Shown piece by piece: positions 35,590 through 62,210 of a stretch of 64,000 nucleotides of DNA (position 1 is the stretch's first letter; each line of letters begins with the position of its first letter). Made by a program: the position numbers and the translations under genes. The notes under the pieces are model-generated. The model was given only the letters and a program-made list of their open reading frames with translations, was not told the DNA's origin and did no database searches. The stretch lies in NCBI GenBank assembly GCA_038087875.1, contig JAXLNO010005338.1:1-64000 (forward strand), given 5' to 3'. The stretch is from Malacoraja senta (taxonomy: Eukaryota).

Positions 35590-35729
35590 GGTAACATCTC
35601 TGGAGAAAAGGAATAGGTGGCATTTCGGGTCGAGACCCTTCTTCACTCTGAAGTCTTCAGACAGTGCCCATCTATTTAGCTGCACAGCTTAACAATTGAT
35701 TTGTAAAATTATGCATTCTTATTTTTCAG

Positions 35730-39313: not shown

Positions 39314-42300
39314 TTTCTTTTAAAATCTTTTTATTGTTTTTTTTCCAAAAAACAAAAACAAAAATAAAAGATTAAAAACAGAGCAAAAAGAATAATGATA
39401 AACATAACAATGGTATTGATACATAGGGATCAGGATTAAACACATTAATAACAGGTATAACCTAATATGAGACCAGTGTCAAAATACACAATGAATATAG
39501 ACCTCTCGGTCCCTATGTAAATACAGGTAAATCTTTAAAAGGAAACATAATTTTTTTTTAAAAAGCAAAGATAAAAAGACAAAAAGAAAAAGAAAAAACA
39601 AAACCCCCCCTAAACTAAAAAAACGTTTTAAAAATTGATAATAATAAAATAAGAATAAAAATAAAATAAATAAATAAAACAAAACAGAGCAAAACCGAAT
39701 CTGAACTGAGAAATTCAACAATTTAAGTCTGTTTGTCGTCAAGTCCGTTCCACCCTATGAAGGTAAAATAATTTTTATAACGGTTAAAGAGGGATCAATT
39801 TATGTTGTATGAAAGTGTTCAATAAATTTTCCCCAAGTCTTATCAAATTTAACCAAGGGTTCAACAATGTCACTTCTGATTTTTTCTAAATTTAAACATG
39901 ATATCGTTTCAGAATACCACTGGAGTGTGGTCGGAGGGTTGGAATCTTTCCATTTAAAGAAAATAAATCTTCTGGCAATTAATGTGGTAAAAGCAATCAA
40001 CCGATGGGCGGAGTGGGACAAATGAATAGAATCTAACATTGGTAACCCAAAAATTGCAGTAATAGGATGAGGTTGTAAATCTATACCTAAGACTACAGAA
40101 ATAGTATCAAAAATATCTTTCCAATATTTTTCCAAAAGAGGGCAGGACCAAAACATATGGGTCAGTGATGCCACTTCAGAGTTACATCTGTCACAGGTAG
40201 GATTTATATGACCATAAAAACGAGCTAACTTATCTTTTGACATATGAGCTCTGTGGACCACCTTGAATTGTATCAAAGCGTGTCTTGCACACATTGAAGA
40301 GGTATTATCTAATTGAAGGATCCTCTCCCATTTCTCTATAGATAAAGACATTTGGAGTTCTCTTTCCCAGTCATTCTTAATTTTATCAAATGTATCTATT
40401 TGCAATTTTAAAATCAACTCATGAATAGTCGTTATTAATCCTTTCTGATAAGGGTTCAACTGTAAAAAAAATCCAAAATTTCGGGTTGATGTGGTAGCGG
40501 AAAAAGGGGTAGTCCCTTTTGTCTAATTTGTAAATATCTAAAAAAGTGTGAATTAGGTAAGTTATATTTATTGGAGAGTTGTTCGAAAGACATAAAACAA
40601 CCCTCCAAAAACAAATCACGAAAAGCTACTAATCCCTTCCTCTTCCATAACAAAAAAATTGATCAGTACTAGATGGTTGGAAGAGAAATTTGGATAAAAT
40701 CAGATAGTCCAAAAAACTTATGAAATTGAAACCGTATTCGGAACGTATGTCTTATTATTGGGTTCATCATATATTTATTCAATCTCGTAATTGTAAAAGG
40801 TAACGAGGCCCCTAGAATAGAAGCCAATTATAGCCCTTGTAAGGAATCACGTTCTAGGTTTATCCATCCAGGGCATTGGGTATCTTCTAAATCTTTTGTC
40901 CAAAATGTTAAATAACGAACATTGACTGCCCAATAGTAGAGTCTAAGGTTCGGCAATGCCAAACCACCAACTTTTTGATTTCTGTATGTATTTTTTACCT
41001 AGTCTGGGATTTTTATTCTGCCATATATATGAAGAAATTTTAGAGTCTATAATATCAAAGAAAGATTTGGCAATAAAAATTGGTATCGTCTGAAATAAAT
41101 ACAGAAATTTAGGTAAAATGAACATTTTAATAGCATTGATTCGGCCAATTAAGGATAAGGACATTGGTGACCATTTAGTGAACTGATGTTTAATGTGGTC
41201 AATTAAAGGAATAAAATTAGCTTTAAATAAATCCTTGTGTTTCTTGGTGATCTTAATACCTAAATAAGTAAAACTTTCAGTAGTCAATCTAAATGGAAGC
41301 TGTCCAGAACTCGAAACAAAATTATTTAATGGGAAAGCTCACTCTTACTAAGATTTAGTTTATAACCAGAAAAACTACTGAATTGATTAAGTAATGCTAC
41401 TATTGCCGGAATAGATTTCTCAGGATTAGAAATAAATAATAACAGATCATCTGCATAAAGAGATAGCTTATGTGTCTTATTCCCCCGGACAATACCAAAA
41501 ATATTAGGGGATTTCCTAATAGCAGTGGCTAACGTTTCCAAAGCAATATCAAATAGTAAAGGACTTAAGGGACAGCCCTGTCTAGTTTCTTGAAAGAGCC
41601 TGAAAAAAGGGGATCTCTGATTATTAGTAAATACAGAAGCCTGAGGTATAAGATATATCAGTTTGATCCAAGAGATAAATTTATTAGACGCTGTATATAC
41701 AATATTTATTAATCTCCTAACATTAAAGAATGAGTAACGATTTTTAATAAAACCTGTCTGATCTTCAGAGATAATTTGCAGTAAAATCTTTTCCAATCTC
41801 ATAGGTAATATTTTGGAAAGAATTTTAAAATCTACATTTAACATTGATATAGGTCTATATGATGTCACTTCAGTAGGGTCTTTATCTTTTTTTTAAATTA
41901 AAGAAATAGAAGCTTCATAAAAAGATTGTGGTAATCTATTCCTTAAAACAGGCTTATTTAAATACCTTGCATAGCCATGGAGACAATAAATTTGAGAAAT
42001 ACTTTAAAAATTCTACTGTAAACCCATCTAAACCGGGAGCTTTACCAGAATTCATTGAAAAAATGCTTTCTGTATTTCTTCTTCCGTGATGGGTTTATCT
42101 AACAACAGAGACTCATTATATGGTAAATTTGGTAAGTTCAGTTTCTTTAAAAACTCATGCATTATATTGGAATCAGTAGGAAAATCTGATTGGGATAGGG
42201 AGGTATAAAATTCCTGAAAGGATTTATTAATTTCGTCATGGTCTACGGTTACTGTACCATCCCGTTTACTCACTTTAGTAATCTGACGCTTGGCCGACAC

Positions 42301-43488
42301 TGCTTTCAATTGATTAGCAAGTCATTTACCAGATTTTTCGCCATTTATATAAAATTGACTTTTGGTTTTAAGTAACTGGTTCTCAATCGGTGATACTAAT
42401 AACAAATCATATCTCAATTGAAGTTCAACTCTATTCTTATAGAGCTCTAAACTAGGAGCTTTTGAATATTTTTTTATCAATTTCTTTAATCTCGTCAGCC
42501 AATGTGCGTATTTCTTTTTGTGTTTGTTTTTTTAATCCCGCAGAGTATGAAATAATTTGTCCACGAATATATGCCTTAAAAGCATCCCAAACTATACCAT
42601 TTTCTCTTCATTAGAGTTTGTCAAGAAGTAAAAAGCAATCTGATCTTTCATAAACTTAATAAAGTTTAAGTCTTGAAGCAAAGTAGCATTAAATCGCCAT
42701 TGTTTAGCACTAAACTTGGAATCAGGTAGTTTGATCAATAGTTTCACTGGTGCATGATCAGAAATAGCAATTGTATCATACTCACATGCAATGACCGATG
42801 GAACTAGCCGAGAATCTAGTATAAAATAGTCGATCCTAGAATAACTATGAAATACATGAGAGAAAAATGAAAATTCTTTGTCATTTGCGTGTAAGAATCT
42901 CCAAATTTCTAACATTCCCGAGTCAAGTAAAAAAGAATAAAATAAATTAGCTGATATATTTGGAAGCACATGATCAGATGTAGACCTATCAATCGAGGGA
43001 TTCAAACAGCAATTGAAGTCTCCATCCATTATTAAAAAGTGTTCATTTAAATTAGGAAAGGATGCAATTAACTGTTTAAAAAACTCAGGGTGATCAATAT
43101 TTGGTGCACAGACATTCACCAAAGCCACTTTTTGCCTAAAAAGGACAGCGGTAATCACCAAGAATCTGCCATATGGATCAGAAATTGTTTCATGGTGAAC
43201 AAACGGAATTGAGGGGTCGATAAAAATAGAGACTCCTTTCACCTTAGCCTGTGAATTTGAATGAAACTGCTGTCCTCTCCAAAACTTGAAAAATCGTGAC
43301 TTGTCATCTTGCCTTACATGAGTTTCCTGAACAAAGATAATCTGAGCATTTAGTCTGTGAAGAACTTTTTTTTTTAAATCCTCTTAATGGGATGGTTCAA
43401 GCCATTAACATTCCATGAAAGGAACTTTATCCATATTGCTTGTAAAAATCATGTGGGATGTAATGGGTTAATTTCTTGAAGCCTAAAA
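39314..43488 (-). mobile_element. L1 family B, 3' part (B1): decayed ORF2 + 3' UTR
   Basis: Minus frames give SWNVNGLNHP..QETH..GDFN..YSRIDYF..SDHAP..YRPISMLNVDFKIL..TRQGCPLSPLLF..LYADD..C.RC...ASLTHMFWSC; A-rich tail at ~39314-39350; multiple frameshifts and an internal RT deletion near 41685. Confidence 0.95.
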
Positions 43489-43505
43489 TGGGAATGGTAT
43501 ATACC

Positions 43506-46500
43506 AGAAAATAATTGCTTATTGATTATAATATTATAACCAATTGTAAGAACTTATACTATTAACAACTTAATAAGTTATGCAGGTTAGATTAGAATAC
43601 TAACAAAAACAAAAATAAAAAATAACGAACTAACATACTAATATGAATTTTTAATAAATTGAAACCTTATCTATAAGTGGGAGGAGGGGATGAGAAACGA
43701 GCACCTGGCTTAGGTCCAGGGGCACGTCTCGTTAACCCCTTCAACCAACAGTTGATTCTTATTGAAGTCAAAAGTATCGGTTTAATAATTAGTAGTTAAA
43801 ATTCCGATATATATATATGTTATAAGGAAATATCAGGGTAAAATTGTATTATATATCTGAATGTGAGGCCTCGTTTTAATATTTTAATATGTTATGATTA
43901 ACTAAGAGAGCGGAGCTATTTGAGTAACAACGCAATGGAAGTCAAAACAACGTTTTTTCCCACCTACAGGTGGGACACTCGCTACAGTGCCGACTATATC
44001 AGACACTGTAGCCTCACTTTTTTAGGTATTTTTTTACCACATAAAATCACTTGTTTGTGTTTTGTGTTTAGTGATAAGAGTAAAATGGACATACCAGCAA
44101 AAGTTAATAATTCCAAAACTCCCCCAATACCTAAAGACCTGGGACATGGACGCACCACAAGATTTAAAGGTACTATAATTATTCAAAATGCATGACACCA
44201 CACAAAAGAACCTAGGAGGAATCTCATTTTGTAGTTGGAATATAAGAGGTATTAACGAACCTATCAAAAGGGGTAAGATATTAGCTCAGCTAAAAATGTA
44301 CAATTCTGACATTACCTTCCTAAAAGAAACACACCTAAAACCTCAGGATCAAGTTAGGCTGAGGGCGAAATGGATAGGTCAAACATACCATTCTTCATTT
44401 ACTTCAAAATCTAGAGGCACGTCAATTATCATAAGAAAAGGTATACCATTTAAAGCAAAGAATATTATAACAGATATAGAAGGGAGATACCTAATAGTTA
44501 ATGGAGAAATCCATGACACTCCACTTACTTTGGTAAATATATATGCCCCTAACTTTGATAACCCCCACTTTTTCAATAAAATCTTCAATATAATTGCAGA
44601 GTCAAACTATCAAAATGTTATAATAGGCGGAGACTTTAACTGTGTTTTAGATCCGTACTTAGATAAATCAAGTCAAAAACAGAGAGGGAATATGAAATCG
44701 AAAACTGGGGAACTCCTCAATACCTATATAAATAACACTAATATAGCAGATGTTTGGAGAATTGTGAATCCAACTGGCAGGGAATATTCGTTTTACTCAA
44801 TGGTACATAAGACATACTCACGTATAGACTACTTTCTGCTGGATACAAAATTAATCCCCCAAACATCTAATGCAATATACCATACAAATTCAATTTCAGA
44901 CCATTCTCCACTAACTTTCTTTTTAAAACTGGAAGGATTGTCTAAGAATAAATCATTCTGGAGATTTAACTCTCAAATTTTAAAAGATCCACAAGCGAAT
45001 ATATATTTAAAAGAACAAATGGAGGTCTTTTTTCAAACAAATGATACTTCAGATATATCGCCTACTTTACTTTGGGAATCTTTTAAAGCATACATTAGGG
45101 GTATTATAATTTCATATCAAGCTTTTCAAAATAAAAAGAATAAGAATGAACAAAGACAGTTAGAAGAACTTATTAGACAAATGGATATAGATAATGCTAA
45201 AGATCCATCAATAGATAAACATAATAAAATAATAATTTTAAAATTTAAATTAAATAAATTATTATCTGCCAAACATATAAGACTTTTTCAAATTACAAAA
45301 CAAGAGCACTTTGAATTTGGGGATAAACCGCATAAACTTTTGGCTCGCCAGCTAAAAAAACGAGAAAAGGAACATACTATACCAAAGATCAAATCAGATA
45401 AAGGGGAATTATTAACAACACCGAAGGATATTAATAAAAGATTTGCGCAATTTTACGAGAATTTGTATACATCTAAAACGATAACTGATTCTAATAATAT
45501 CACAAAGTTCTTGGATACCTGTAATCTTCCAAAGTTAGAGCTGAGGGAACAAGAGGAATTGGGTGCACAAATTTCAATTAAGGAATTAGAAGATACAATA
45601 AACTCATTAAAGAATGGAAAAACACCAGGCCCTGATGGATTTACTAATGAATTTTATAAAAGCTTTTATGATAAAATAATACCAAGATTACAAAAAATGT
45701 ACCAATACGCTTTTAAAAAACGAATACTACCTGATACATTAGCGGAATCAACGATTACATTAATACCTAAGAAAAATAAAGATTTAGAAGAACCTGGCTC
45801 ATATAGAGCTATAGCATTGTTAAACACAGATCAAAAAATATTAGCGAAAACATTAGCTAGAAGATTAAGTAAATACATTAGTAAATTAATAAACCCAGAT
45901 CAGACAGGGTTTATCCCTAAGAGATACTCTTCTAATAATATGAGACGTCTACTCAACATAATGCACTAACACAAATCTGAAGATCAAGAATTATCAATTA
46001 TTTCGCTGGATGCTGAAAAAGCATTTGATCAAGTAGAATGGAATTATATGGATAAAGTATTACAAAAATTTCAACTGGGAGAGAATTTTATTTTATGGAT
46101 TAAGTTACTATATAACAAACCTACAGCTAGAATACTTACTAATAACATATTATCCTCGAAATTTCAACTATCAAGGGGAAATAGACAAGGATGCTCATTA
46201 TCACCACAGCTGTTTGCTCTCATTATTGAACCGCTAGCAGAAAAAATTATATTCATGGATATAATACTAAAGACTCATATAATAAAATATCTTTATACGC
46301 GGATGATATATTATTGTATATTACAAAACCTCAAATCACTATACCAAATATATTAAATTTAATTGAAGACTTCGGATCTTTTTCTGGATATAGAATAAAT
46401 TGGAATAAAAGTGAAATTATGTCAATAAAACCGAAAGATTCAACACATCTTTTAAAATTCCCTTTTAAAATAGCTACAGAAAAATTTAAATATTTGGGAA

Positions 46501-48317
46501 TCGAAATTACCAGAACATATCAAGGTATGTTCAGGGCAAATTTTGACCCCCTACTTATTAAACTGAATACATAAATTAAATTCTGGAAAACGCTCCCGAT
46601 GTCTTTAATAGGCCGAATAAACGCAATAAAAATGATCTTTTTACCACAAATTTTATACCTATTTCAATCAATTCCTATATACTTACCTAAGAAGTTTTTT
46701 AAAAAACTCGACTCAGATATCACTAATTTTATATGGGACTATAAATCACATAGAATACAAAAAACCCATCTGAATAAACCTAAAGTATTGGGGGGTCTAG
46801 CACTACCTAATTTTATGTATTATTACTGGTCAGTAAATATTAAAAACATGATTCAACTGATGGATAACTCCGTCCAGCAAGTAGACTGGATTGTAATGGA
46901 GAAAGAGGATTGCTCCTCTAGAAACATTGGAGCGATCCTCCTCTCTCCAATGAAACTGAATAACATAAATTATAATAAGAACCCAATTATTCATAGTACA
47001 ATCCGTATTTGGAAACAAATAAAACAAAATTTAAAATTAAGAAACTTATCACTTTTATTACCTATATTCAATAACCCTTCGTTTAGTCCTTCTATTATAG
47101 ATAAAGCTTATACACAATGGGATAGACTAGGAATTAAAACGCTTGGTGACTTGTATGAAACTGGAAAATTACTTCATTTCGACAATTACAAATAAAATAT
47201 AAACTCGGAAATAATCAATATTTTAAATATTTTCAAATATGCGACTATTTGAAAAAATATACAAAAGATCATTATAATAATCCAGTAGATGTATTGGACG
47301 AGGCAATGCAGATAAAAGCGGAATCAGCAAACTTAATATCATATTTGTATAATATTATTTTAAATGTACAAATACGACCTACGGAGGGTATCAGAAGAGA
47401 CTGGGAAGAAGAGTTAGCTATTAAAATTTCAAAGGAAAGTTGGAATGAATACTTATTAAACGTGCATAAATGCTCGATTAATGTAAGACACACTTTAATA
47501 CAATTTAAAATTTTACATAGATTATATTATTCGAAAACTAAAATTCATAAAATTTTCCCAAACGTATCATCTATTTGTGATAAATGTCAATCCCAAGAAG
47601 CAACTATAGCGCACTCATTTGTCTTCTGTACAAAAATTCAAAAATTTTGGAATGAAATTTTTGAAATCTTTACAAAGTTATTTAAAACAAGACTGATACC
47701 CAAAGCAGAATGGATTATCTTCGGAATAACGGAAGATGATCCAGAACTAAATGTGTTTCAAAAGAAATTAATGGACTATGGGTTAATAACTGGAAAAAAG
47801 CTAATTCTAAAATTTTGGAAGAAGGCTCCAATACCAACTATAAATATGTGGATTTCAAATATGTTTGAAACATTACACCTAGAAGAGATAAGACTCCTCC
47901 TAGCAGGTAAACCAGATCACTTCCACCTGACGTGGTCTGCATTTATAGAATTATTACAAATATAGGGTGCAAAAGTACTTTAAAAAAAATAAAAAATTGA
48001 GGTCAGGGGGATGATAGTTGAAGAGTTGGTATGTTCTATTTACGTGATGCTCAAAAAAAAACATTTGTTTCTTTTTTTTCTCTTTCTTTCTTCTTTTCTT
48101 GGGGCCTATTTCTTAATTTTCTACACTTTTCTACACTTGCACTTTTTCCTTCATTTTCTTCTTTCTTTCAATCTTTTCCTTTTCTAGTGTAAAAAAACAA
48201 ATAAAGGGAGTACATTAATTGTAAGAAGATATAAATGACGAGTATTAATGTATGTGGCTGTAATGTAATGTACTTCTAATAAATAAAAATTTAAAAAAAA
48301 ACAAAAAAAAAAAAAAA
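43506..48317 (+). mobile_element. L1 family A copy A1, 5'-truncated in the inter-ORF spacer
   Basis: Spacer + ORF2 (44188-47965, frameshifted: SWNIRGIN..ETH..GDFN..SRIDY..SDH..PGPDG..SLDAEKAFD..RQGC..YADD..CDKC) + AATAAA + poly(A). Confidence 0.97.
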
Positions 48318-49845
48318 TCATATATTTATTCAATCTCGTAATTGTAAAAGGTAACGAGGCCCCTAGAATAGAAGCCAATTATAGCCCTTGTAAGGAATCA
48401 CGTTCTAGGTTTATCCATCCAGGGCATTGGGTATCTTCTAAATCTTTTGTCCAAAATGTTAAATAACGAACATTGACTGCCCAATAGTAGAGTCTAAGGT
48501 TCGGCAATGCCAAACCACCAACTTTTTTGATTTCTGTATGTATTTTTTACCTAGTCTGAGATTTTTATTCTGCCATATATATGAAGAAATTTTAGAGTCT
48601 ATAATATCAAAGAAAGATTTGGCAATAAAAATTGGTATCGTCTGAAATAAATACAGACATTTAGGTAAAATGAACATTTTAATAGCATTGATTCGGCCAA
48701 TTAAGGATAAGGACATTGGTGACCATTTAGTGAACTGATGTTTAATGTGGTCAATTAAAGGAATAAAATTAGCTTTAAATAAATCCTTGTGTTTCTTGGT
48801 GATATTAATACCTAAATAAGTAAAACTTTCAGTAGTCAATCTAAATGGAAGCTGTCCAGAACTCGAAACAAAATTATTTAATGGGAAAGCTCACTCTTAC
48901 TAAGATTTAGTTTATAACCAGAAAAACTACTGAATTGATTAAATAATGCTACTATTGCCGGAATAGATTTCTCAGGGTTAGAAATAAATAATAACAGATC
49001 ATCTGCATAAAGAGATAGCTTATGTGTCTTATTCCCCCGGACAATACCAAAAATATTAGGGGATTTCCTAATAGCAGTGGCTAACGTTTCCAAAGCAATA
49101 TCAAATAGTAAAGGACTTAAGGGACAGCCCTGTCTAGTTTCTTGAAAGAGCCTGAAAAAAGGGGATCTCTGATTATTAGTAAATACAGAAGCCTGAGGTA
49201 TAAGATATATCAGTTTGATCCAAGAGATAAATTTATTAGACGCTGTATATACAATATTTATTAATCTCCTAACATTAAAGAATGAGTAACGATTTTTAAT
49301 AAAAACCTGTCTGATCTTCAGAGATAATTTGCAGTAAAATCTTTTCCAATCTCATAGGTAATATTTTGGAAAGAATTTTAAAATCTACATTTAACATTGA
49401 TATAGGTCTATATGATGTCACTTCAGTAGGGTCTTTATCTTTTTTTAAATTAAAGAAATAGAAGCTTCATAAAAAGATTGTGGTAATCTATTCCTTAAAA
49501 AAGGCTTCTTTAAATACCTTGCATAGCCATGGAGACAATAAATTTGAGAAATACTTTAAAAATTCTACTGTAAACCCATCTAAACCGGGAGCTTTACCAG
49601 AATTCATTGAAAAAATGCTTTCTGTATTTCTTCTTCCGTGATGGGTTCATCTAACAACAGAGACTCATTATATGGTAAATTTGGTAAGTTCAGTTTCTTT
49701 AAAAACTCATGCATTATATTGGAATCAGTAGGAAAATCTGATTGGGATAGGGAGGTATAAAATTCCTGAAAGGATTTATTAATTTCGTCATGGTCTACGG
49801 TTACTGTACCATCCCGTTTACTCACTTTAGAAATCTGACGCTTGG
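48318..49845 (-). mobile_element. L1 family B duplicate (B2a), copy of 40767-42293
   Basis: About 11 differences in ~1.5 kb versus B1 by eye; shares the same RT deletion. Confidence 0.95.
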
Positions 49846-50038
49846 GACTTCCGGTGGCGTCATGTTAGACTAACAGACGTGCACCCAGCTCCTCTCCCGA
49901 AAAACTTCACGATTTATCGTGTAAAACGGGTCCGAAAATCGGGATTGTTTTTAAAAACCTTACCGGAGCTTCTGGTTACCGCGCTGATGACGTCATCGTT
50001 AAACGCGATGTTTTAAACGGTGGTTTGAAGCCCTTTAA

Positions 50039-51100
50039 ATGAGTATTTTGACTCCAGCTGTGAGCCCTCAGAGAGCTGTGAATAAGCTGTCGAAAAAGTT
50101 CGAAACAGAAGTTACCTCTGAAGTCTCTGAAGTGGCTGCAGAAATGTCTAAGAAAGACTTTGATGATTTGAACAAATCAATGAAAAATTTGAAAGATGAG
50201 ATCTCGGATAATAGGGTGGAAGATAAGAAGGAAATGAAGGAAAATTCGGTAAAAATGATGGAAGGAATGGAGAAGATGATGAAGGATTTAAATGCTGGTA
50301 ACCAGAAGAATATGACGGATTTACTGGACATTATGAATAAACGAATTGATGAGGTGAAAGATGGACTATCAGAGAAAATGGATAAGATGGATGTAATTAC
50401 TACGGATAAGTTCACGGCTGTACTTGAAACAGTAGCTGCAAGTATGCAGACAATTACGGAAATGGAGAAAAATACGGCTCGACTGGTTGAAGACATGGCG
50501 AAATTGAGGCAAGAACATGAGCAAATGAGGCGAGAAAACGAACAAGCATCACTACAAATGGGGACTCAATTAGAGAAAGTCTCATTCAAATGCCTGGACC
50601 TGGAAGCTCGTTCTGGACGCCAGAATTTGAGAATTCTTGGTGTTTCAGAGGGGACAGAAGGAGAACAGGTACGTGAATTTGCCATGGGCTTGTTGAAACA
50701 ACTGTTGAATCTTCCCAAGGAACCGAACATCGAAGTGGCTCATCGTGTCCCAAGATTTGGAAAAAGATTTGATGCGGCAAAAGCTTATCCACGACATATT
50801 ATAGTGAAATTTCGAGATACTGCAGAACTGGAATACGTTATGACTAAAATCAAATATGGTGTACAATTACGGCTGGACAAAGACACTATTAAGATATTCA
50901 GGGACTACCCACATGAAATTGTGCAAAAAAGAAATACATTTGATAAGGTTAAAGATCTTTTAAGAGGGAGAGAAGGGGTCAGATTTGGGTTTTTTTATCC
51001 CGCGAAAATGCGTATTTCTTTTAATGGTCTTGAAAAGTCAATTGTTAAGCCTGAAGACGCTTTCAAATATGCCCAAACAATTGTTGAAAAACAGAAATAA
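50039..51100 (+). CDS. L1 ORF1p (coiled coil + RRM + CTD), 353 aa, open
   Basis: Heptad-rich N-terminal half, then LEARSGRQNLRILGVSEG..EVAHRV..RHIIVKF..IFRDY..FFYPAKMRI, matching L1 ORF1p motifs. Confidence 0.92.
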   Translation: MSILTPAVSPQRAVNKLSKKFETEVTSEVSEVAAEMSKKDFDDLNKSMKNLKDEISDNRVEDKKEMKENSVKMMEGMEKMMKDLNAGNQKNMTDLLDIMNKRIDEVKDGLSEKMDKMDVITTDKFTAVLETVAASMQTITEMEKNTARLVEDMAKLRQEHEQMRRENEQASLQMGTQLEKVSFKCLDLEARSGRQNLRILGVSEGTEGEQVREFAMGLLKQLLNLPKEPNIEVAHRVPRFGKRFDAAKAYPRHIIVKFRDTAELEYVMTKIKYGVQLRLDKDTIKIFRDYPHEIVQKRNTFDKVKDLLRGREGVRFGFFYPAKMRISFNGLEKSIVKPEDAFKYAQTIVEKQK

Positions 51101-51655
51101 AAGGGAGCTTTGGCAGATCCGAATAATTCTCAGCTATGTTTTGTCTGGGGATAGTTACATTGTTATCTCTGGAATGTTGAAGCAAGGACATTTTCTGTTC
51201 AAAACGTGTAATCAACTTTATAGCTGGATATGAATTAGAAAATAATTGCTTATTGATTAAAATGTTATAACCAATTGTAAGAACTTATCCTATTAACAAC
51301 TTTAAAAGTTATGCAGGTTAGATTAGAATACTAACAAAAAAAACAAAAAAATAATGAACTAACATACTAATATGAATTTTTAATAAATTGTAACCTTGTC
51401 TATAAGCGGGAGGAGGGGATGAGAAACGAGCTCCTGGCTTATGTCCAGGAGCACGTCTCGTTAACCCCTTCAACCAACAGCTGATTCTTATTGAAATCAA
51501 AAATATTGGTTTAATAATTAAACTCTGATATATATATATGTTATAAGGAAATATCAGGGTAAAATTGTATTATATATCTGAATGTGAGGCCTCGTTTTAA
51601 TATTTTAATATGTTATGATTAACTAAGTGAGCGGAGCGAGTTGAGCAACATCGCA

Positions 51656-51913
51656 ATGGAAGTCAAAATAAGGTTTTTTCCCACCTACAGGTGGGTCACT
51701 CGCTACAGTGCCGACTATAGACACTGTAGCCTCACTTTTTTAGTTTTTTTTTTATCACATAAAATCACTTGTTTGTGTTTTGTGTTTAGTGATAAGAATA
51801 ATATGGACATACCAACAAAAGTTAATAATTCAAAAACTCCCCCAATACCTAAAGACCTGGGATATGGACGCACCACAAGATTCAAAGGTACTATAATTAT
51901 TCAAAATGCATGA
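51656..51913 (+). CDS. Candidate small spacer ORF overlapping the ORF2 start (85 aa; also 43935-44195 and 57767-58027)
   Basis: GCAATGG strong Kozak context; open in all three A copies; stop TGA overlaps the ORF2 ATG as ATGCATGA. Coding status unproven. Confidence 0.35.
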   Translation: MEVKIRFFPTYRWVTRYSADYRHCSLTFLVFFLSHKITCLCFVFSDKNNMDIPTKVNNSKTPPIPKDLGYGRTTRFKGTIIIQNA

Positions 51914-54900
51914 CACCACACAAAAGAACCTAGGAGGAATCTCATTTTGTAGTTGGATTATAAGAGGTATTAACGAACCTATCAAAAGGGGTAAGATATT
52001 AGCTCAGCTAAAAATGTATAATTCTGACATTACCTTCCAACAAGAAACACACCTAAAACCTCAGGACCAAGTTAGGCTGAGGGCGAAATGGATAGGTCAA
52101 ACATACCACTCTTCATTCACTTCAAAATCTAGAGGCACGTCAATTATCATAAGAAAAGGTATACCATTTAAAGCAAAGAATATTATAACAGATATAGAAG
52201 GGAGATACCTAATAGTTAATGGAGAAATCCATGACACTCCACTTACTTTGGTAAATATATATGCCCCTAACTTTGATAACCCCCACTTTTTCAATAAAAT
52301 CTTCAATATAATTGCAGAGTCAAACTATCAAAATGTTATAATAGGCGGAGACTTTAACTGTGTTTTAGATCCGTACTTAGATAAATCAAGTCAAAAACAG
52401 AGAGGGAATATGAAATCGAAAACTGGGGAACTCCTCAATACCTACATAAATAACACTAATATAGCAGATGTTTGGAGAATTGTGAATCCAACTGGCAGGG
52501 AATATTCGTTTTACTCAATGGTACATAAGACATACTCACGTATAGACTACTTTCTGCTGGATACAAAATTAATTCCCCAAACATCTAATGCAATATATCA
52601 TACAAATTCAATTTCAGACCATTCTCCACTAACTTTCTTTTTAAAACTGGAAGGATTGTCTAAGAATAATTCATTCTGGAGATTTAACTCTCAAAATTTA
52701 AAAGATCCACAAGCGAGTATATATTTAAAAGAACAAATGGAGGTCTTTTTTCAAACAAATGATACTTCAGATATATCGCCTACTTTACTTTGGGAATCTT
52801 TTAAAGCATACATTAGGGGTATTATAATTTCATATCAAGCTTTTCAAAATAAAAATAATAAGAATGAACAAAGACAGTTAGAAGAACTTATTAGACAAAT
52901 GGATATAGATAATGCTAAAGATCCATCAATAGATAAACATAATAAAATAATAATTTTAAAATTTAAATTAAATAAATTATTATCTGCCAAACTTATAAGA
53001 CTTTTTCAAATTACAAAACAAGAGCACTTTGAATTTGGGGATAAACCGCATAAACTTTTGGCTCGCCAGCTAAAAAAACGAGAAAAGGAACATACTATAC
53101 CAAAGATCAAATCAGATAAAGGGGAATTATTAACAACACCGAAGGATATTAATAAAAGATTTGCGCAATTTTACGAGAATTTGTATACATCTAAAACGAT
53201 AATTGATTCCAATAATATCACAAAGTTCTTGGATACCTGTAATCTTCCAAAGTTAGAGCTGAAGAAACAAGAGGAACTGGGTGCACAAATCTCAATTAAG
53301 GAATTAGAAGATACAATAAACTCACTAAAAAATGGAAAAACACCAGGCCCTGATGGATTTACTAATGAATTTTATAAAAGCTTTTATGATAAAATAATAC
53401 CGATTACAAAAAATGTACCAATACGCTTTTAAAAAACGAATACTACCTGATACATTAGCGGAATCAACGATTACATTAATACCTAAGAAAAATAAGGATT
53501 TAGAAGAACCTGGCTCATATAGAGCTATAGCATTGTTAAACACAGATCAAAAAATATTAGCGAAAACATTAGCCAGAAGATTAAGTAAATACATTAGTAA
53601 ATTAATAAACCCATATCAGACAGGGTTTATCCCTAAGAGATACTCCTCTAATAATATGAGACGTCTACTCAACATAATGCACTCACACAAATCTGAAGAT
53701 CAAGAATTATCAATTATTTCGCTGGATGCTGAAAAAGCATTTGATCAAGTAGAATGGAATTATATGGATAAAGTATTACAAAAATTTCAACTGGGAGAGA
53801 ATTTTATTTTATGGATTAAGTTACTATATAACAAACCTACAGCTAGAATACTTACTAATAACATATTATCCTCGAAATTTCAACAACCAAGGGGAAATAG
53901 ACAAGGATGCTCATTATCACCACAGCTGTTTGCTCTCATTATTGAACCGCTAGCAGAAAAAATTATAATACACCCTGATATTCATGGATATAATACTAAA
54001 GACTCATATAATAAAATATCTTTATACGCGGATGATATATTATTGTATATTACAAAACCTCAAATCACTATACCAAATATATTAAATTTAATTGAAGACT
54101 TCGGATCTTTTTCTGGATATAGAATAAATTGGAATAAAAGTGAAATTATGTCAATAAAACCGAAAGATTCAACACATCTTTTAAAATTCCCTTTTAAAAT
54201 AGCTACAGAAAAATTTAAATATTTGGGAATCGAAATTACCAGAGCATATCAAGGTATGCTCAGGGCAAATTTTGACCCCCTACTTAATAAACTGAATACA
54301 TTAATTAAATTCTGGAAAACGCTTCCGATGTCTTTAATAGGCCGAATAAACGCAATAAAAATGATCTTTTTACCACAAATTTTATACCTATTTCAATCAA
54401 TTCCTATATACTTACCTAAGAAGTTTTTTTAAAAAACTCGACTCAGATATCACTAATTTTATATGGGACTATAAATCACATAGAATACAAAAAACCCATC
54501 TGAATAAATCTAAAGTATTGGGGGGTCTAGCACTACCTAATTTTATGTATTATTATTGGTCAGTAAATATTAAAAACATGATTCAACTGATGGATAACTC
54601 CGCCCAGCAAGTAGACTGGATTGTAATGGAGAAAGAGGATTGCTCCTCTAGAAACATTGGAGCGATCCTCCTCTCTCCAATGAAATTGAATAACATAAAC
54701 TATAATAAGAACCCAATTATTCATAGTACAATCCGTATTTGGAAACAAATAAAACAAAATTTAAAATTAAGAAACTTATCACTTTTATTACCTATAGTCA
54801 ATAACCCTTCGTTTAGTCCTTCTATTATAGATAAAGCTTATACACAATGGGATAGACTAGGAATTAAAACGCTTGGTGACTTGTATGAAACTGGAAAATT

Positions 54901-55696
54901 ACTTTCATTTCAACAATTACAAATAAAATATAAACTCGGAAATAATCAATATTTTAAATACTTTCAAATATGCGACTATTTGAAAAAATATATAAAAGAT
55001 CATCATAATAACCCAGCAGATGTACTGGACGAAGCAATGCAGATAAAAGCGGAATGAGCAAACTTAATATCATAGTTGTACAATATTATCTTAAATGCAC
55101 AAATACCATCTACGGAGGGTATCAGAAGAGACTGGGAACAAGAGTTAGCTATTAAAATTTCAAAGGAAAGTTGGAATGAATACTTATTAAAAGTGCATAA
55201 ATGCTCGATTAATGTAAGACACACTTTAATACAATTTAAAATTTTACATAGATTATATTATTCGAAAACTAAAATTCATAAAATTTTCCCAAACGTATCA
55301 TCTATTTGTGATAAATGTCAATCCCAAGAAGCAACTATAGCGCACTCATTTGTCTTCTGTACAAAAATTCAAAAATTTTGGAATGAAATTTTTGAAATCT
55401 TTACAAAGTTATTTAAAACAAGACTGATACCCAAAGCAGAATGGATTATCTTCGGAATAACGGAAGATGATCCAGAATTAAATGTGTTTCAAAAGAAATT
55501 AATGGATTATGGGTTAATAACTGGAAAAAAGCTAATTCTAAAATTTTGGAAGAAGGCTCCAATACCAACTATAAATATGTGGATTTCAAATATGTTTGAA
55601 ACATTACACCTTGAAGAGATAAGACTCCTCCTAGCAGGTAAACCAGATCACTTCCACCTGACGTGATCTGCATTTATAGAATTATTACAAACATAG
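51906..55696 (+). pseudogene. L1 ORF2 of A2 (EN + RT + C-terminal Cys domain), disrupted
   Basis: Consecutive ORF-track pieces 51906..53432, 53413..54432, 54518..55057 and 55076..55666, separated by frameshifts and premature TGA codons. Confidence 0.95.
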
Positions 55697-56106
55697 GGTG
55701 CAAAAGTACTTTAAAAAAAAATAAAAAATTGAGGTCGGGTAAGGGGGGATGATAGTTGAAGAGTTGGTATGTCCTATTTACGTGATGCTCAAAAAAAAAA
55801 CATTTGTTTCTCTTTTTTTTCTCTTTCTCTTTTCTTTTCTTAGGGCCTATTTCTTAACTCTTTTTCTTTTTGTTTTTAATTTCGCTCTTATAGGGTCTTC
55901 GTCCTTTTTTGTTGTTACATTTTCTACACTTTTCTACACTTGCACTTTTTCCTTCACTTTCTTCTCTCTTTCAATCTTTTCTTTCTCTAGTGTAAAAAAA
56001 TAAATAAAGGGAGTACATTAATTGTAAGATGATATAAATGACGAGTATTAATGTATGTGGTTGTAATGTAATGTACTTCTAATAAATAAAAATTAAAAAA
56101 AAAAAA

Positions 56107-57319
56107 AGAAATCTGACGCTTGGCCGACACTGCTTTCAATTGATTAGCAAGTAATTTACCAGATTTTTCGCCATTTATATAAAATTGACTTTTGGTTTTA
56201 AGTAACAGGTTCTCAATCGGTGATACTAATAACAAATCATATCTCAATTGAAGTTCAACTCTATTCTTATAGAGCTCTAAACTAGGAGCTTTTGAATATT
56301 TTTTTATCAATTTCTTTAATCTCGTCAGCCAATGTGCGTATTTCTTTTTGTGTTTGTTTTTTTAATCCCGCAGAGTATGAAATAATTTGTCCACGAATAT
56401 ATGCCTTAAAAGCATCCCAAACTATACCATTTTCTCTTCATTAGAGTTTGTCAAGAAGTAAAAAGCAATCTGATCTTTCATAAACTTAATAAAGTTTAAG
56501 TCTTGAAGCAAAGTAGCATTAAATCGCCATTGTTTAGCACTAAACTTGGAATCAGGTAGTTTGATCAATAGTTTCACTGGTGCATGATCAGAAATAGCAA
56601 TTGTATCATACTCACATGCAATGACCGATGGAACTAGCCGAGAATCTAGTATAAAATAGTCGATCCTAGAATAACTATGAAATACATGAGAGAAAAATGA
56701 AAATTCTTTGTCATTTGCGTGTAAGAATCTCCAAATTTCTAACATTCCCGAGTCAAGTAAAAAAAGAATAAAATAAATTAGCTGATATATTTGGAAGCAC
56801 ATGATCAGATGTAGACCTATCAATCGAGGGATTCAAACAGCAATTGAAGTCTCCATCCATTATTAAAAAGTGTTCATTTAAATTAGGAAAGGATGCAATT
56901 AACTGTTTAAAAAACTCAGGGTGATCAATATTTGGTGCACAGACGTTCACCAAAGCCACTTTTTGCCTAAAAAGGACAGCGGTAATCACCAAGAATCTGC
57001 CATATGGATCAGAAATTGTTTCATGGTGAACAAACGGAATTGAGGGGTCGATAAAAATAGAGACTCCTTTCACCTTAGCCTGTGAATTTGAATGAAACTG
57101 CTGTCCTCTCCAAAACTTGAAAAATCGTGACTTGTCATCTTGCCTTACATGAGTTTCCTGAACAAAGATAATCTGAGCATTTAGTCTGTGAAGAACTTTT
57201 TTTTAAAAATCCTCTTAATGGGATGGTTCAAGCCATTAACATTCCATGAAAGGAACTTTATCCATATTGCTTGTAAAAATCATGTGGGATGTAATGGGTT
57301 AATTTCTTGAAGCCTAAAA
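56107..57319 (-). mobile_element. L1 family B duplicate (B2b), copy of 42277-43488
   Basis: Continues B2a exactly across the A2 TSD; about 5 differences from B1. Confidence 0.95.
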
Positions 57320-57336
57320 TGGGAATGGTATATACC

Positions 57337-60300
57337 AGAAAATAATTGCTTATTGATTATAATATTATAACCAATTGTAAGAACTTATCCTATTAACAAC
57401 TTAATAAGTTATGCAGGTTAGATTAGAATACTAACAAAAACAAAAATAAAAAATAACGAACTAACATACTAATATGAATTTTTAATAAATTGAAACCTTA
57501 TCTATAAGTGGGAGGAGGGGATGAGAAACGAGCACCTGGCTTAGGTCCAGGGGCACGTCTCGTTAACCCCTTCAACCAACAGTTGATTCTTATTGAAGTC
57601 AAAAGTATCGGTTTAATAATTAGTAGTTAAAATTCCGATATATATATATGTTATAATGAAATATATAGGGTAAAATTGTATTATATATCTGAATGTGAGG
57701 CCCCGTTTTAATCTTTTAATATGTTATGATTAACCAAGAGAGCGGAGCTATTTGTGTAACAACGCAATGGAAGTCAAAACAAGGTTTTTTCCCACCTACA
57801 GGTGGGACACTCGCTATAGTGCCGACTATATCAGACACTGTATCTTCACTTTTTTAGTTTTTTTTTTATCACATAAAATCACTTGTTTGTGTTTTGTGTT
57901 TAGTGATAAGCGTAAAATGGACATACCAGCAAAACTTAAAAACTCAAAAGCTCCCCCAATACCTAAAGACCTGGGATATGGATGCACCACAAGATTCAAA
58001 GGTACTATAATTATTCAAAATGCATGACACCACACAAAAGAACCTAGGAGGAATCTCATTTTGTAGTTGGAATATAAGAGGTATTAACGAACCTATTAAA
58101 AGGGGTAAGATACTAGCTCAGCTGAAACTGTACAACTGCGACATTACCTTCCTACAAGAAACACACCTAAAACCTCAGGATCAAGTTAGGTTGAGGGCGA
58201 AATGGAGAGGTCAAACATACCATTCTTCATTTACTTCAAAATCTAGAGGCACGTCAATCATCATAAGAAAAGGTATACCATTTAAAGCAAAGAATATCAT
58301 AACAGATATAGAAGGGAGATACCTAATAGTTAATGGAGAAATCCATGACACTCCACTTACTTTGGTAAATATATATGCCCCTAACTTTGATAACCCCCAC
58401 TTTTTCAATAAAATTTTCAACATAATTGCAGAGTCAAACTATCAAAATGTTATAATAGGAGGAGACTTTAACTGTGTTTTAGATCCGTACTTAGATAAAT
58501 CAAGTCAAAAACAGAGAGGGAATATGAAATCGAAAACTGGGGAACTTCTCAATTCCTATATAAACAACACTAATATAGCAGATGTTTGGAGAATTGTTAA
58601 TCCAACTGGCAGGGAATACTCGTTTTACTCAATGGTACATAAGACATACTCACGTATAGACTACTTTCTGCTGGATACAAAATTAATCCCCCAAACATCT
58701 AATGCAATATACCACACAAACTCGATTTCAGACCATTCTCCACTAACTTTCTTTTTAAAACTGGAAGGATTGTCTAAGAATAAATCGTTTTGGAGATTTA
58801 ATTCTCAAATTCTAAAAGATCCACAAGCGAGTATATATTTAAAAGAACAAATGGAGGTCTTTTTTCAAATAAATGATACTCCAGATATATCGCCTACTGT
58901 ATTATGGGAATCTTTCAAAGCATACATTAGGGGTATTATAATTTCATATCAAGCTTTTCAAAATAAAAAGAATAAGAATGAACAAAGACAGTTAGAAGAA
59001 CTTATTAGACAAATGGATATAGATAATGCTAAAGATCCATCAATAGATAAACATAATAAAATAATAATTTTGAAATTTAAATTAAATAAATTATTATCTG
59101 CCAAACTTATAAGACTTTTTCAAATTACAAAACAAGAGCACTTTGAATTTGGGGATAAACCGCATAAACTTTTGGCTCGCCAGCTAAATAAACGAGAAAA
59201 GGAACATACTATACCAAAGATCAAATCAGATAAAGGGGAATTATTAACAACACCGAAGGATATTAATAAAAGATTTGCGCAATTCTATGAGAATTTGTAT
59301 ACATCTAAAACGACAATTGATTCCAATAATATCACAAAGTTCTTGGATACCTGTAATCTTCCAAAGTTAGAGCTGAAGGAACAAGAGGAACTGGGTGCAC
59401 AAATCTCAATTAAGGAATTAGAAGATACAATAAACTCACTAAAGAATGGAAAAACACCAGGCCCTGATGGATTTACTAATGAATTTTATAAAAGCTTTTA
59501 TGATAAAATAATACCAAGATTACAAAAAATGTACCAATATGCTTTTAAAAAACGAATACTACCTGATACATTAGCGGAATCAACGATTACACTAATACCT
59601 AAGAAAAATAAAGATTTAGAAGAACCTGGTTCATATAGAGCTATAGCATTGTTAAACACAGATCAAAAAATATTAGCGAAAACATAAGCTAGAAGATTAA
59701 GTAAATACATTAGTAAATTAATAAACCCAAATCAGACGGGGTTTATCCCTAAGAGATACTCTTCTAACAATATGAGACGTCTACTCAACATAATGCCCTC
59801 ACATAAATCTGAAGATCAAGAATTATCAATTATTTTGCTGGATGCTGAAAAAGCATTTGATCAAGTAGAATGGAATTATATGGACAAAGTATTAGAAAAA
59901 TTTCAACTGGGAGAGAATTTTATTCTATGGATTAAGTTACTATATAACGAACCTACAGCTAGAATACTAACTAATAACATATTATCCTCGAAATTCCAAC
60001 TATCAAGGGGAAATAGACAAGGATGCTCATTATCACCACAGCTGTTTGCTCTCATTATTGAACCGCTAGCAGAAAAAATTAGAATACACCCTGATATCCA
60101 TGGATATAATACTAAAGACTATATAATAAAATATCTTTATACGCGGACGATATATTACTGTACATTACAAAACCTCAAATCACTATACCAAATATATTAA
60201 ATTTAATTGAAGACTTTGGATCTTTTTCTGGATATAGAATAAATTGGAATAAAAGTGAAATTATGTCAATAAAACCGAAAGATTCAACACATCTTTTAAA

Positions 60301-62210
60301 ATTCCCTTTTAAAATAGTTACAGAAAAATTTAAATATTTGGGAATCGAAATTACCAGAACATATCAAGGTATGTTTAGGGCAAATTTTGACCCCCTACTT
60401 AATAAATTAAACACACTAATTAAATTCTGGAAAACGCTCCCGATGTCTTTAATAGGCCGAATAAACGCAATAAAAATGATCTTTTTACCACAAATTTTAT
60501 ACCTATTTCAATCAATTCCTATATACTTACCAAAGAAGTTTTTTTAAAAACTCGACTCAGATATCACTAATTTTATATGGGACTATAAATCACATAGAAT
60601 ACAAAAAACTCATCTGAATAAACCTAAAGTATTAGGGGGTTTAGCACTACCTAATTTTATGTATTATTATTGGTCAGTAAATATTAAAAACATGATTCAA
60701 CTGATGGATAACTCCGCCCAGCAAGTGGACTGGATTGTAATGGAGAAAGAGGATTGCTCCTCTAGAAACATTGGAGCGATCCTCCTTTCTCCAATGAAAT
60801 TGAATAACATAAATTATAATAAGAACCCAATTATTCATAGTACAATCCGAATTTGGAAACAAATAAAACAAAATTTAAAATTAAGAAATTTATCACTTTT
60901 ATTACCTATAGTCAATAAACCTTCGTTTAATCCTTCTATTATAGATAAAGCTTATACACAATGGGATAGACTAGGAATTAAAACGCTTGGTGACTTGTAT
61001 GAAACTGGAAAATTACTTTCATTTCAACAATTACAAATAAAATATAAACTCGGAAATAATCAATATTTTAAATATTTTCAAATATGCGACTATTTGAAAA
61101 AATATACAAAAGAGCATTATAATAACCCAGTAGATGTATTGGACGAGGCAATGCAGATAAAAGCGGAATCAGCAAACTTAATATCATATTTGTATAATAT
61201 TATCTTAAATGTACAAATACCATCTACGGAGGGTATCAGAAGAGACTGGGAACAAGAGTTAGCTATTAAAATGTCAAAGGAAAGTTGGAATGAATACTTA
61301 TTAAACGTGCATAAATGCTCGATTAATGTAAGACACACTTTAATACAATTTAAAATTTTACATAGATTATATTATTCGAAAATTAAAATTCATAAAATTT
61401 TCCCAAATGTATCATCTATTTGTGATAAATGTCAATCCCAAGAAGCTACTATAGCGCACTCATTCGTTTTCTGTACAAAAATTCAAAAATTTTGGAATGA
61501 AATTTTTGAAATCTTTACAAAGTTATTTAAAACAAGACTGATACCCAAAGCAGAATGGATTATCTTCGGAATAACGAAAGATGGTCCAGAACTAAATGTG
61601 TTTCAAAAGAAACTAATGGACTATTGGTTAATAACTGGAAAAAAGCTAATTCTAAAATTTTGGAAGAAGGCTCCAATACCAACTATAAATATGTGGATTT
61701 CAAATATGTTTGAAACATTACACCTAGAAGAGATAAGACTCCTCCTAGCAGGTAAACCAGATCACTTCCACCTGACGTGGTCTGCATTTATAGAATTATT
61801 ACAAACATAGGGTGCAAAAGTACTTTAAAAAAATTAAAAAAATTGAGGTCAGGTAAAGGGGGATGATAGTTGAAGAGTTGGTATGTCCCATTTACGTAAT
61901 GCTCATAAAAATATTTGTTTCTCTTTTTTTCCTCTTTCTCTTTCTCTTTTTTTCCTAGGGCCTATTTCTTAACTCTTTTTCTTTTGTTTTTAATTTTGCT
62001 CTTATAGGTACTTCGTCCTTTTTTGTTGTCACATTTTCTACACTTTCACTTTTTCCTTCACTTTCTTCTTTCTTTCAATCTTTTCCTTTTCTAGTGTAAA
62101 AAATAAAGGGAGTACATTAATTGTAAGAAGATATAAATGACGAGTACTAATGTATGTGGTTGTAATGTAATGTACTTCTAATAAATAAAAATTAAAAAAA
62201 AACAAAAAAA
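57337..62210 (+). mobile_element. L1 family A copy A3, 5'-truncated in the spacer
   Basis: Same 5' junction and 17-nt filler as A1; ORF2 58020-61810 is frameshifted; poly(A) ends at ~62210. Confidence 0.97.

Follow-up and report, generated by a model that had tools for sequence, protein, structure and literature searches.

A 3,060-bp tandem duplication and a chimeric L1 retrotransposon at a single locus of repeat DNA

Two 5′-truncated L1 elements in the window (the whole 64,000-nucleotide stretch of DNA analysed here) start behind the same 17-nt filler and end in different targets, which raises the question of how such a pair can arise and how it relates to the tandem duplication in which it lies. 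A sequence-only reading had proposed that the cDNA of a new L1, primed at position 40766, invaded the resident element A3 and so produced a chimeric element, A1. Self-BLAST gave the order B1–A1–polyA–B2a–A2–B2b–A3–polyA–B3, in agreement with the arrangement proposed by that reading. B is the host of every A insertion, and the proteins of B and A are ~30–50% identical. The features of the locus are as follows.

39806–43488, minus strand: B1, the ORF2 region of an older L1-clade element of a family other than A (tblastn and Pfam APE, RT and zf-RVT matches; 15 stops across five HSPs)
40766–43825: first copy of the 3,060-bp duplicated unit, in which 2,723 bp of B are joined through the 17-nt filler to 320 bp of A
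43386–43396, plus strand: stretch of B from which the first half of the filler was likely copied
43489–43505, plus strand: first copy of the 17-nt filler, directly before A1
43506–48317, plus strand: A1, a 5′-truncated L1 with inter-ORF region, ORF2 (44188–47963), 3′ UTR and an A9-C-A15 tail
43806–43825: switch interval, from A1–A3 identity to lineage-level divergence, within an (AT)n tract
48317–49845, minus strand: B2a, second copy of B 40766–42293, abutting the A1 tail directly
49846–56107, plus strand: A2, a full-length L1 with an inter-ORF region of about 800 bp, present in B2 only
56107–57319, minus strand: B2b, second copy of B 42277–43488
56901–57319: left copy of the 419-bp target duplication of A3, equal to B 43070–43488
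57320–57336, plus strand: second copy of the 17-nt filler
57337–62212, plus strand: A3, a 5′-truncated L1 with a start identical to that of A1 and an A9-C-A9 tail
62211–62645: right copy of the 419-bp duplication of A3, at the start of B3, followed by the empty site without filler and without A
62547–62566: templated scar in B3, derived, net +16 bp, assembled from neighbouring sequence
62646–64000, minus strand: rest of B3, comprising the B inter-ORF region and ORF1 (match at 63318–63689)

The 3′ UTR of B1 extends leftward beyond 39806–43488. ORF2 is interrupted in all three A elements, by two stops and two frameshift indels in A1, three stops and two frameshifts in A2, and two stops and one frameshift in A3, whose ORF2 comes from a more distant lineage. 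ORF1 of A2 (50039–51100) is open and encodes 353 aa. Rfam gave no matches across the window. No affected host gene was seen at the locus, which is a single locus of repeat DNA.

Judged by their coding sequence, A1–A3 can be assigned to the L1 clade of non-LTR retrotransposons. Their ORF2 contains an APE endonuclease, an L1-type RT and a C-terminal cysteine motif, with Pfam matches to Exo_endo_phos, RVT_1 and, weakly, zf-RVT; the motifs YADD and C-x2-C-x8-H-x4-C were both found. The RT matches human L1 ORF2p best (E 1e-74, against E 1e-18 for R2). The A2 ORF1 matches human L1 ORF1p structures (E 2e-7), with Pfam Transposase_22 just under the cut-off, and a search of it for a CCHC knuckle found none, so that this ORF1 is L1-type (RRM/CTD) and not CCHC gag-like. 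A search for ORF1 homologues returned two proteins, of 40–45% identity, among 2,709 candidates, and a 23-base motif common to A1–A3 had no matches in metagenome contigs. Each of the three elements terminates in AATAAA and an A tail. A2 is an ordinary insertion, with a short 17-bp TSD (49829–49845 and 56107–56123) at a TTCT/AA site that scores 5/6 against TTTT/AA.

Duplication of the 3,060-bp unit was confirmed in the contig sequence, the copies being ~0.4–0.6% diverged. B1 and B2 differ by 9 mismatches in 1,526 bp (0.59%) and 6 in 1,212 bp (0.50%), where one site in the A2 TSD is entered in both segments, and by four further one-base indels; a difference of ~0.5–0.7% had been given by the sequence-only reading. 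The RT deletion ascribed to both copies is also present, the same 35 RT codons being absent from each relative to A2. The A1 tail ends at 48317, where it is joined to B position 40766 by an A common to both, and the duplication breakpoint therefore coincides with the end of the A1 poly(A), as had been claimed. No trace of an insertion was found at 40766 in B1, where the B ORF2 runs in frame.

The 5′ junction and the filler are identical at 43489–43505 and 57320–57336, and the filler with the 320 bp that follow it contains a single difference between A1 and A3 in 337 sites. This common junction was copied once. Some 100 bp upstream of the junction, at 43386–43396, B matches the initial half of the filler in 11 of 12 letters. 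Allowing one edit, a search of both strands returned this site, the two positions homologous to it in B, the junctions themselves and, beyond these, only one unrelated match at 14400. The 3′ end of the filler forms a 12-nt palindrome (43495–43506), which suggests fold-back synthesis. A family origin of the filler was rejected in view of this local template and of A2, the only longer copy compared, whose sequence differs at the filler position.

Divergence between A1 and A3 is far from uniform, whereas a uniform level would have refuted the sequence-only reading. The near-perfect match described earlier for the first ~320 bp was recovered (1 difference in 320 bp, 43506–43825), and the abrupt change beyond it is real, with a count of 30 in the next 500 bp in place of the ~25 given by the sequence-only reading; beyond the switch the total is 150 in 4,453. 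MaxChi on 186 informative sites places the break between 43805 and 43826, close to the expected 43810–43826, with none of 5,000 permutations as strong, and no second break in A1 was supported by the same test (716 of 3,000 permutations). At most ORF2 sites A1 agrees with A2, as had been said (85 of 124 informative sites); the motifs offered as an example lie at 44290, 52008 and 58122. Directly after the switch (43826–44187) A1 is no clear copy of A2, being 4.7% from A2 and 6.1% from A3. The changes private to the A3 ORF2 comprise 60 synonymous, 23 missense and 2 stops (omega about 0.11). A1–A3 divergence is thus shaped by selection on ORF2, and since it is mostly synonymous, the 3′ parts derive from different active L1 lineages. 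Because the junction was copied once and near-identity gives way to lineage-level divergence within 20 bp, one of A1 and A3 is a chimera.

Simpler accounts of the pair were rejected. Plain tandem duplication followed by neutral drift is inconsistent with the synonymous bias and abrupt onset of the divergence. A1 and A3 are not alleles, given their 3.4% divergence, its synonymous bias and their different 3′ targets. A mosaic already present in the source element, taken as the whole explanation, cannot yield the common truncation point, filler and flank.

The explanation preferred here, tentatively and at somewhat below an even chance, is that A3 was resident and that the cDNA of a new L1 was completed on it, giving a chimeric A1 and the 3,060-bp tandem duplication before A2 arrived. 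A3 would have inserted first, in an aberrant target-primed event with its primer site at B 43070 and an untidy 5′ join at 43488, leaving the 419-bp duplication, the locally templated filler and probably the B3 scar. An L1 RNA of another lineage would then have primed at B 40766. The cDNA made from it, of at least 4.5 kb, would have annealed at 43806–43825 to the 5′ part of A3, which lay 2.7 kb further downstream, either on the same chromatid or on its sister. Host synthesis back through the first 320 bp of A3, the filler and B (synthesis-dependent annealing), or alternatively a sister-chromatid join with an equal result, would have produced A1 and the duplication. A2 would have inserted normally into B2 later.

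The sequence itself shows the duplication, that one of the two A copies is chimeric, where the switch falls and that the divergence arose in separate lineages; that A1 is the chimeric copy, the cDNA pathway, the order of events and a germline origin are inferred. In favour of a chimeric A1 count the sharp and significant switch, the synonymous bias, which places the divergence in active source lineages, and the duplication boundary at the poly(A) end. The shared 320 bp lie 6.1–6.5% from A2, slightly closer to the A3-type distance (6.0–7.0%) than to the A1-type (4.6–4.7%), which also speaks for it. Priming at 40766, as originally proposed, agrees with this boundary and sits less well with the endonuclease site, which scores 3/6 against TTTT/AA and is equalled or bettered by about a third of B positions; the A3 site scores 4/6, as high as about 11% of B positions. 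This poor match counts against a chimeric A1, as does the A9-C pattern in both tails, which it does not predict.

B3 resumes at B position 43070 and not at 43489, so that A3 is flanked by a 419-bp target duplication. This duplication and the templated scar, which disrupts the conserved SWNVNGL motif of B in B3 only, had been overlooked in the sequence-only reading. A chimeric A1 requires just this one long TSD, a point in its favour; TSDs of up to 323 bp have been cited (PMC8087252). The 419-bp duplication also opens the mirror image, which is unlikely and still carries real weight. A1 would be the intact resident, inserted with a 2,723-bp target duplication, the filler and B3 scar being made at the 43488 join; a later L1 would prime at B 43070 in the second B copy, and its cDNA, or post-insertion conversion, would pair with the 5′ end of A1, copy 320 + 17 + at least 419 bp and re-anneal to B, so that A3 is the chimera and its 419-bp duplication a copying tract. 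No second long stagger is then needed and only about 0.76 kb is copied, and tandem duplications of 1–10 kb at L1 targets, read as large TSDs, have been reported (bioRxiv 2024.12.14.628481). On the other hand, this order would call for the rarer, longer first event, and the comparison with A2 points slightly towards a chimeric A1. Between B3 and B1 there is a single clear substitution, besides slippage and the scar, against about three substitutions expected at the left-part rate. B1/B2 substitutions are skewed to the left (11 in 40767–42377 against 2 in 42378–43825), and a less diverged right part would speak for a chimeric A3 over a chimeric A1; the skew is not significant with a free change point (p = 0.10) or with an a priori split at 43070 (p = 0.34). 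The sole direct discriminator is a likelihood ratio of about 1.1–1.5 (1.15–1.48) for A1 over A3 as the chimera. Of the original proposal, the chimerism of one copy is therefore borne out, A1 as that copy is slightly favoured, and invasion of A3 by cDNA would be the way in which the join was made.

Decay of the elements also bears on direction. Disabling ORF2 changes (four in A1, three in A3) are uninformative for relative dating. If the 3′ part of A1 dates from the duplication and A2 arrived after it, about one private stop is predicted for A1 and A2 together from the B1/B2 split; five are present (p = 0.007), and missense plus stop changes number 15 in A1 and 19 in A2 against 6.4 expected (p = 0.02 and 0.002). 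This excess counts against a chimeric A1, and is eased under a chimeric A3, where the left-part rate alone applies (A1 p = 0.22, A2 p = 0.07, stops p = 0.04). For A1 this places decay of the 3′ part above half of the B1/B2 split (p = 0.02, or 0.22 at the left-part rate), and its indels agree with expectation (2 against 2.5). The excess could come from source-element changes or from later conversion between B1 and B2.

Recombination between alleles would dispense with cDNA invasion. An ordinary L1, ‘C’, inserted at 40766 on the A3 haplotype could have crossed over unequally with A3 of a haplotype lacking C; the lack of any element trace at 40766 in B1 means that non-allelic recombination would need such a heterozygous insertion. 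Geometrically this should give exactly the same order and junctions, the ~0.5% B1/B2 difference could be allelic, and the restriction of A2 to B2 follows naturally. We nevertheless consider it improbable. The switch comes within the initial 6.7% of the length that A1 and A3 share, where the DNA is non-coding and diverged by about 6%, and most of the longer A1/A3 identity tracts (109–180 bp) lie further 3′; a crossover would thus have taken the most diverged 5′ end and not the better-matched ORF2, and annealing of a cDNA end would fit better than a meiotic event. It also predicts that C and A2 postdate the B1/B2 split, opposite to what the decay excess points to, and L1-flanked variants in 1,019 human genomes are reported as 219 deletions to 1 insertion (PMC12350158).

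An assembly artefact, in which the contig jumps from haplotype 1 (B and the 5′ end of A3) to the homologous L1 of haplotype 2 (C at 40766), is very improbable. B1/B2 divergence is of heterozygosity size, and sequencing runs searched for B1 and its flank gave no near-identical match to the B1 stretch: the best of the 24 listed shared 0.57 and 0.54 of 569 words and the remainder 0.30 or less, shares that are uninformative on alleles. Against it, the simple version with A1 and A3 as two alleles is excluded on the grounds given above, the switch must join sequences about 6% apart locally, and the only N run of the window lies at 4837–5274. Slightly more remote still is duplication of the whole of B (40766–43488) plus A by a non-L1 event breaking in the tail, followed by replacement of 4.5 kb of one copy with another L1, through conversion or cDNA primed at the old tail start. 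The common A9-C pattern and the poor site at 40766 would be accounted for, at the cost of an extra event and a random breakpoint within a ~25-nt tail. Over their final ~110 bp, A1 and A3 show three substitutions and one indel of 5 bp (p = 0.012 under the rate of the duplication), so the replacement must also reach the tail exactly.

Chimeric insertions formed by pairing of L1 cDNA with a resident L1, in an SDSA-like manner, are reported in cultured human cells (Gilbert et al., 2005). A chimera of comparable size arose in vivo in a de novo human CDKL5 case, where 4,272 bp of new L1HS adjoin a 2,602-bp stretch copied from the locus of a resident L1PA5 (Hiatt et al., 2021; PMC8087252). As in these, the 5′ part and non-L1 flank here are those of a resident, diverged L1 locus (1/337; 2.7–3.1 kb, against 2.6 kb in CDKL5) and the 3′ part is from a different L1 (150/4,453), a new polyadenylated one in the reported cases; a long TSD, of 119 bp, accompanies the CDKL5 insertion. 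In that case some 230 kb separate the donor from the copy, which is dispersed, and the patient was suspected of mosaicism, whereas here the donor is adjacent, the duplication is tandem, aged by about 0.5% and has gained a later insertion, the host is probably a non-mammalian vertebrate, and direction and pathway are inferred. L1-mediated tandem duplications or large TSDs (Rodriguez-Martin et al., 2020, PMC7058536; bioRxiv 2024.12.14.628481; bioRxiv 2024.08.27.596794, 14 of 152 rearrangements) similarly have a single L1 with poly(A) bridging a head-to-tail target duplication, of 1–10 kb as reported. Those are somatic or experimental and attributed to end-joining or break-induced replication, the accessible portions of the sources describing no resident-L1 pairing, and here two duplications (419 and 2,723 bp) end at one junction. 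L1–L1 non-allelic homologous recombination (PMC12350158) also places a chimeric L1 at a duplication junction, but joins two pre-existing L1s, each with its own TSD, and in humans nearly always yields deletions. Extra nucleotides copied from the flank occur at LINE 5′ ends (Yamaguchi et al., 2014; PMC4245944), like the partly copied-looking filler with its source ~100 bp upstream in the target; the fold-back palindrome and the second templated scar in the other target-duplication copy set this locus apart.

The mechanism is therefore already on record, in human cells and in a single de novo case in a human patient, and the locus is probably a new, non-mammalian and apparently inherited example of it. 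A broader suggestion, itself distinctly unlikely, is that the 5′-truncated end of one L1 served as a local trap for L1 cDNA in the germline of a non-mammal, and that two events in succession left oversized target duplications (419 bp and 2.7 kb) sharing the same end base. The locus offers a simple signature that can be searched for in genomes, namely L1 pairs with the same 5′ junction and a different 3′ target. L1-bridged tandem duplications have been documented in tumours; if the preferred explanation is true, kilobase duplications and mosaic L1s made by cDNA completion on a resident L1 would be passed on in non-mammals as well. If such events are common in the host genome, L1 retrotransposition into L1-rich DNA would be a routine germline source of kilobase tandem duplications and mosaic L1s.

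Judged by their sequence matches, the family A elements belong to the L1 clade. The best match of the reverse transcriptase (RT) is human L1 ORF2p (E 1e-74), with R2 at E 1e-18, ORF1 matches L1 ORF1p (E 2e-7), and the Pfam domains detected are APE, RT and a weak zf-RVT. The inter-ORF region is roughly 800 bp; this length and the young esterase-ORF1 LINEs described below would point to a non-mammalian vertebrate host, and the tails of the repeats perhaps to a cartilaginous fish. In A2, ORF1 (50039-51100) is still open at 353 aa, and a protein search with it returned just two distant relatives at 40–45%. Three copies of the family (A1, A2 and A3) are inserted into an older L1-clade element, B. 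The order B1–A1–B2–A2–B2–A3–B3 claimed by the sequence-only reading was recovered by self-comparison of the window and pairwise alignment, from which the following layout is derived.

Layout of the A/B locus (B positions are B1 coordinates)
Ends at 43488, minus strand: B1, older L1-clade element
Between 43488 and the start of A1: 17-nt filler; an identical filler precedes A3
43506–48317: A1, preceded by the 17-nt filler
48317–49845: B2a, in which B resumes at B position 40766
49846–56107: A2, full length, with a 17-bp target site duplication (TSD)
56107–57319: B2b, followed by the second filler copy
57337–62212: A3, followed by B3
After A3: B3, restarting at B position 43070, crossing the empty 43488 site and continuing into ORF1 of B

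B accounts for 2,723 bp of the 3,060-bp duplicated unit. B1 and B2 are separated by 13 clear substitutions (one of them in the A part), one two-base shift in a T/A run and four one-base indels, and they do share an RT deletion, which measures 35 codons. The ORF2 reading frame of B1 is unbroken across 40766. The differences between 40767-43825 and its second copy are rich in transversions (6/13 A/C and 2/13 A/T), unlike a CpG-driven spectrum. Across the three B copies, the boundary of the T/A run shifts stepwise at constant length, from T10A3 (43366-43378) through T8A5 (57197-57209) to T5A8 (62507-62519).

Comparison of the three copies indicates that either A1 or A3 is a chimera. A1 and A3 differ at 1/320 sites in their shared 5' part, and after the switch at 43806–43825 at 22/362 in the remaining inter-ORF region, 109/3,775 in ORF2 and 19/316 in the 3' UTR; divergence is thus not uniform along their length. 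Alignment of all three gives 228 variable gap-free columns: A3 alone differs in 112, A2 alone in 74 and A1 alone in 41, and in one all three differ. The first 19 informative sites all group A1 with A3, and the 186 informative sites are best split between 43805 and 43826, where a breakpoint had been expected (43810-43826), with none of 5,000 permutations as strong. A second breakpoint in the same set was not significant (716/3,000 permutations). The A3-private changes in ORF2 consist of 60 synonymous, 23 missense and two stops, against a neutral expectation of about 21% synonymous, which argues that the divergence between the 3' parts of A1 and A3 built up in active lineages that were under selection. 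This selection-shaped divergence rules out plain duplication followed by drift, and likewise A1 and A3 as alleles.

We tentatively prefer A3 as the resident copy and A1 as the chimera. A3 would have inserted first, leaving a 419-bp duplication, and a new cDNA primed at 40766 would then have used A3 as its pairing partner, copying 3.06 kb. The mirror order, rather unlikely in our view, has A1 inserting first with a 2.7-kb duplication, and a new L1 primed at 43070 pairing with A1 and copying about 0.76 kb. The preference is mainly because the first event is shorter when A3 is the resident; TSDs as long as 323 bp, cited in PMC8087252, give it precedent, as do duplications of 1–10 kb at L1 target sites, described in bioRxiv 2024.12.14.628481, for the mirror order. 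The divergence between A2 and the shared 5' part leans towards a resident A3 (likelihood ratio 1.15–1.48), and the one clear substitution between B3 and B1 in 419 bp leans slightly the same way, whereas substitutions between the duplication copies are denser left of 43070 (11 in 2,303 bp versus 2 in 756 bp, p 0.34; with the change point left free, p 0.10 on substitutions alone and 0.17 on all 18 events), which leans towards the mirror. Of the proposal that cDNA primed at 40766 met a resident A3 to yield A1, the chimerism of one copy stands, and its assignment to A1 is barely favoured by the likelihood ratio.

A3 is flanked by its own 419-bp target duplication, overlooked in the sequence-only reading. 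The right copy has gained a net 16 bp, assembled from neighbouring sequence; this insertion must be derived as it disrupts the SWNVNGL motif of B. The first half of the filler agrees at 11/12 letters with B sequence lying about 100 bp upstream; across both strands of the window there is one other match, unrelated. The 3' end of the filler is a 12-nt palindrome. It is thus partly flank-like, resembling the 5' extra nucleotides copied from the flank that PMC4245944 describes for LINE inserts. The filler and the scar in B3 would reflect error-prone end joining near 43488.

Several results run against the preferred reading. The 40766 site agrees with the L1 target consensus TTTT/AA (quoted in PMC4859970) at 3/6 positions, a score reached by about a third of B positions. 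A1 and A2 hold five private stops versus 0.98 predicted from half the B1/B2 divergence (p 0.007), and 15 and 19 missense plus stop changes, respectively, versus 6.4 expected (p 0.02 and 0.002). Source-inherited changes may inflate the counts, and conversion of one tandem B copy by the other could make the yardstick too small. With the left-part rate only, p is 0.04 for stops, 0.22 for A1 and 0.07 for A2. Frameshift indels (two in each, 2.5 expected) are consistent. The tails of A1 (48284-48317) and A3 (62186-62212) are both A9-C-An, that of A2 being plain. Despite this common tail the A1 and A3 3' UTRs are about 6% apart, and three substitutions plus a 5-bp indel separate their last ~110 bp; simple duplication thus does not account for the tail.

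The same sequence may also result from unequal crossover in which just one of the two haplotypes carried a normal L1 at 40766, or from a chimeric assembly join, the in-silico twin of that exchange. Against crossover, the switch falls within the opening 6.7% of the shared length, where the DNA is about 6% diverged, and PMC12350158 gives 219 deletions versus one insertion among L1-flanked variants in 1,019 humans. Crossover also leaves the excess of stops and missense changes in A1 and A2, because the insertions would then be younger than the B1/B2 split. Among the matches listed, the best public sequencing runs contained just 0.57 and 0.54 of the words that were sampled. The sole assembly gap in the window (4837-5274, 438 N) is distant from the locus.

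Other repeats accompany the A/B locus. Two young LINE copies (20639-25346, plus strand; 31873-35592, minus strand), which we take to be CR1/L2-like, are about 99% identical, inverted and about 6.5 kb apart; both have a GDSL esterase ORF1 and an APE-RT ORF2 and end in an 8-bp tandem repeat, and the 5' end of the first bears a 90-bp tandem repeat (3.6 copies). Directly before that end is a 787-bp internal piece of a LINE from this family (19848-20634), 91% identical to the young copies. A TAGA-based satellite occupies 17007-18050; its higher-order repeat is 72 bp long (5.5 copies, 91% matches). A dispersed SINE-sized repeat of about 270–290 bp (2718-3008, 25477-25742, 27511-27780 and 36469-36751; 66–74% alike) has no match in Rfam.

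The order, duplication and A1/A3 switch of the sequence-only reading are borne out, and its interpretation is upheld in part. The structure resembles chimeric L1 insertions ascribed to retrotransposition and SDSA, for which PMC8087252 cites Gilbert et al. (2005); the CDKL5 case in that paper is an in vivo chimera of comparable size. Tandem duplications bridged by L1 are known from tumours (PMC7058536) and make up 14/152 rearrangements in bioRxiv 2024.08.27.596794. A search of the literature by title found no inherited non-mammalian tandem case, which is weak evidence of absence as most subscription journals lie outside its coverage. At B positions 40766, 42277 and 43070, three separate L1s of the same family primed within 2.3 kb, all antisense to the older L1, and the cluster is possibly an insertion hot spot. 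The two oversize target duplications share one end base, one probably arising via end joining and the other via homology-guided copying of the junction.
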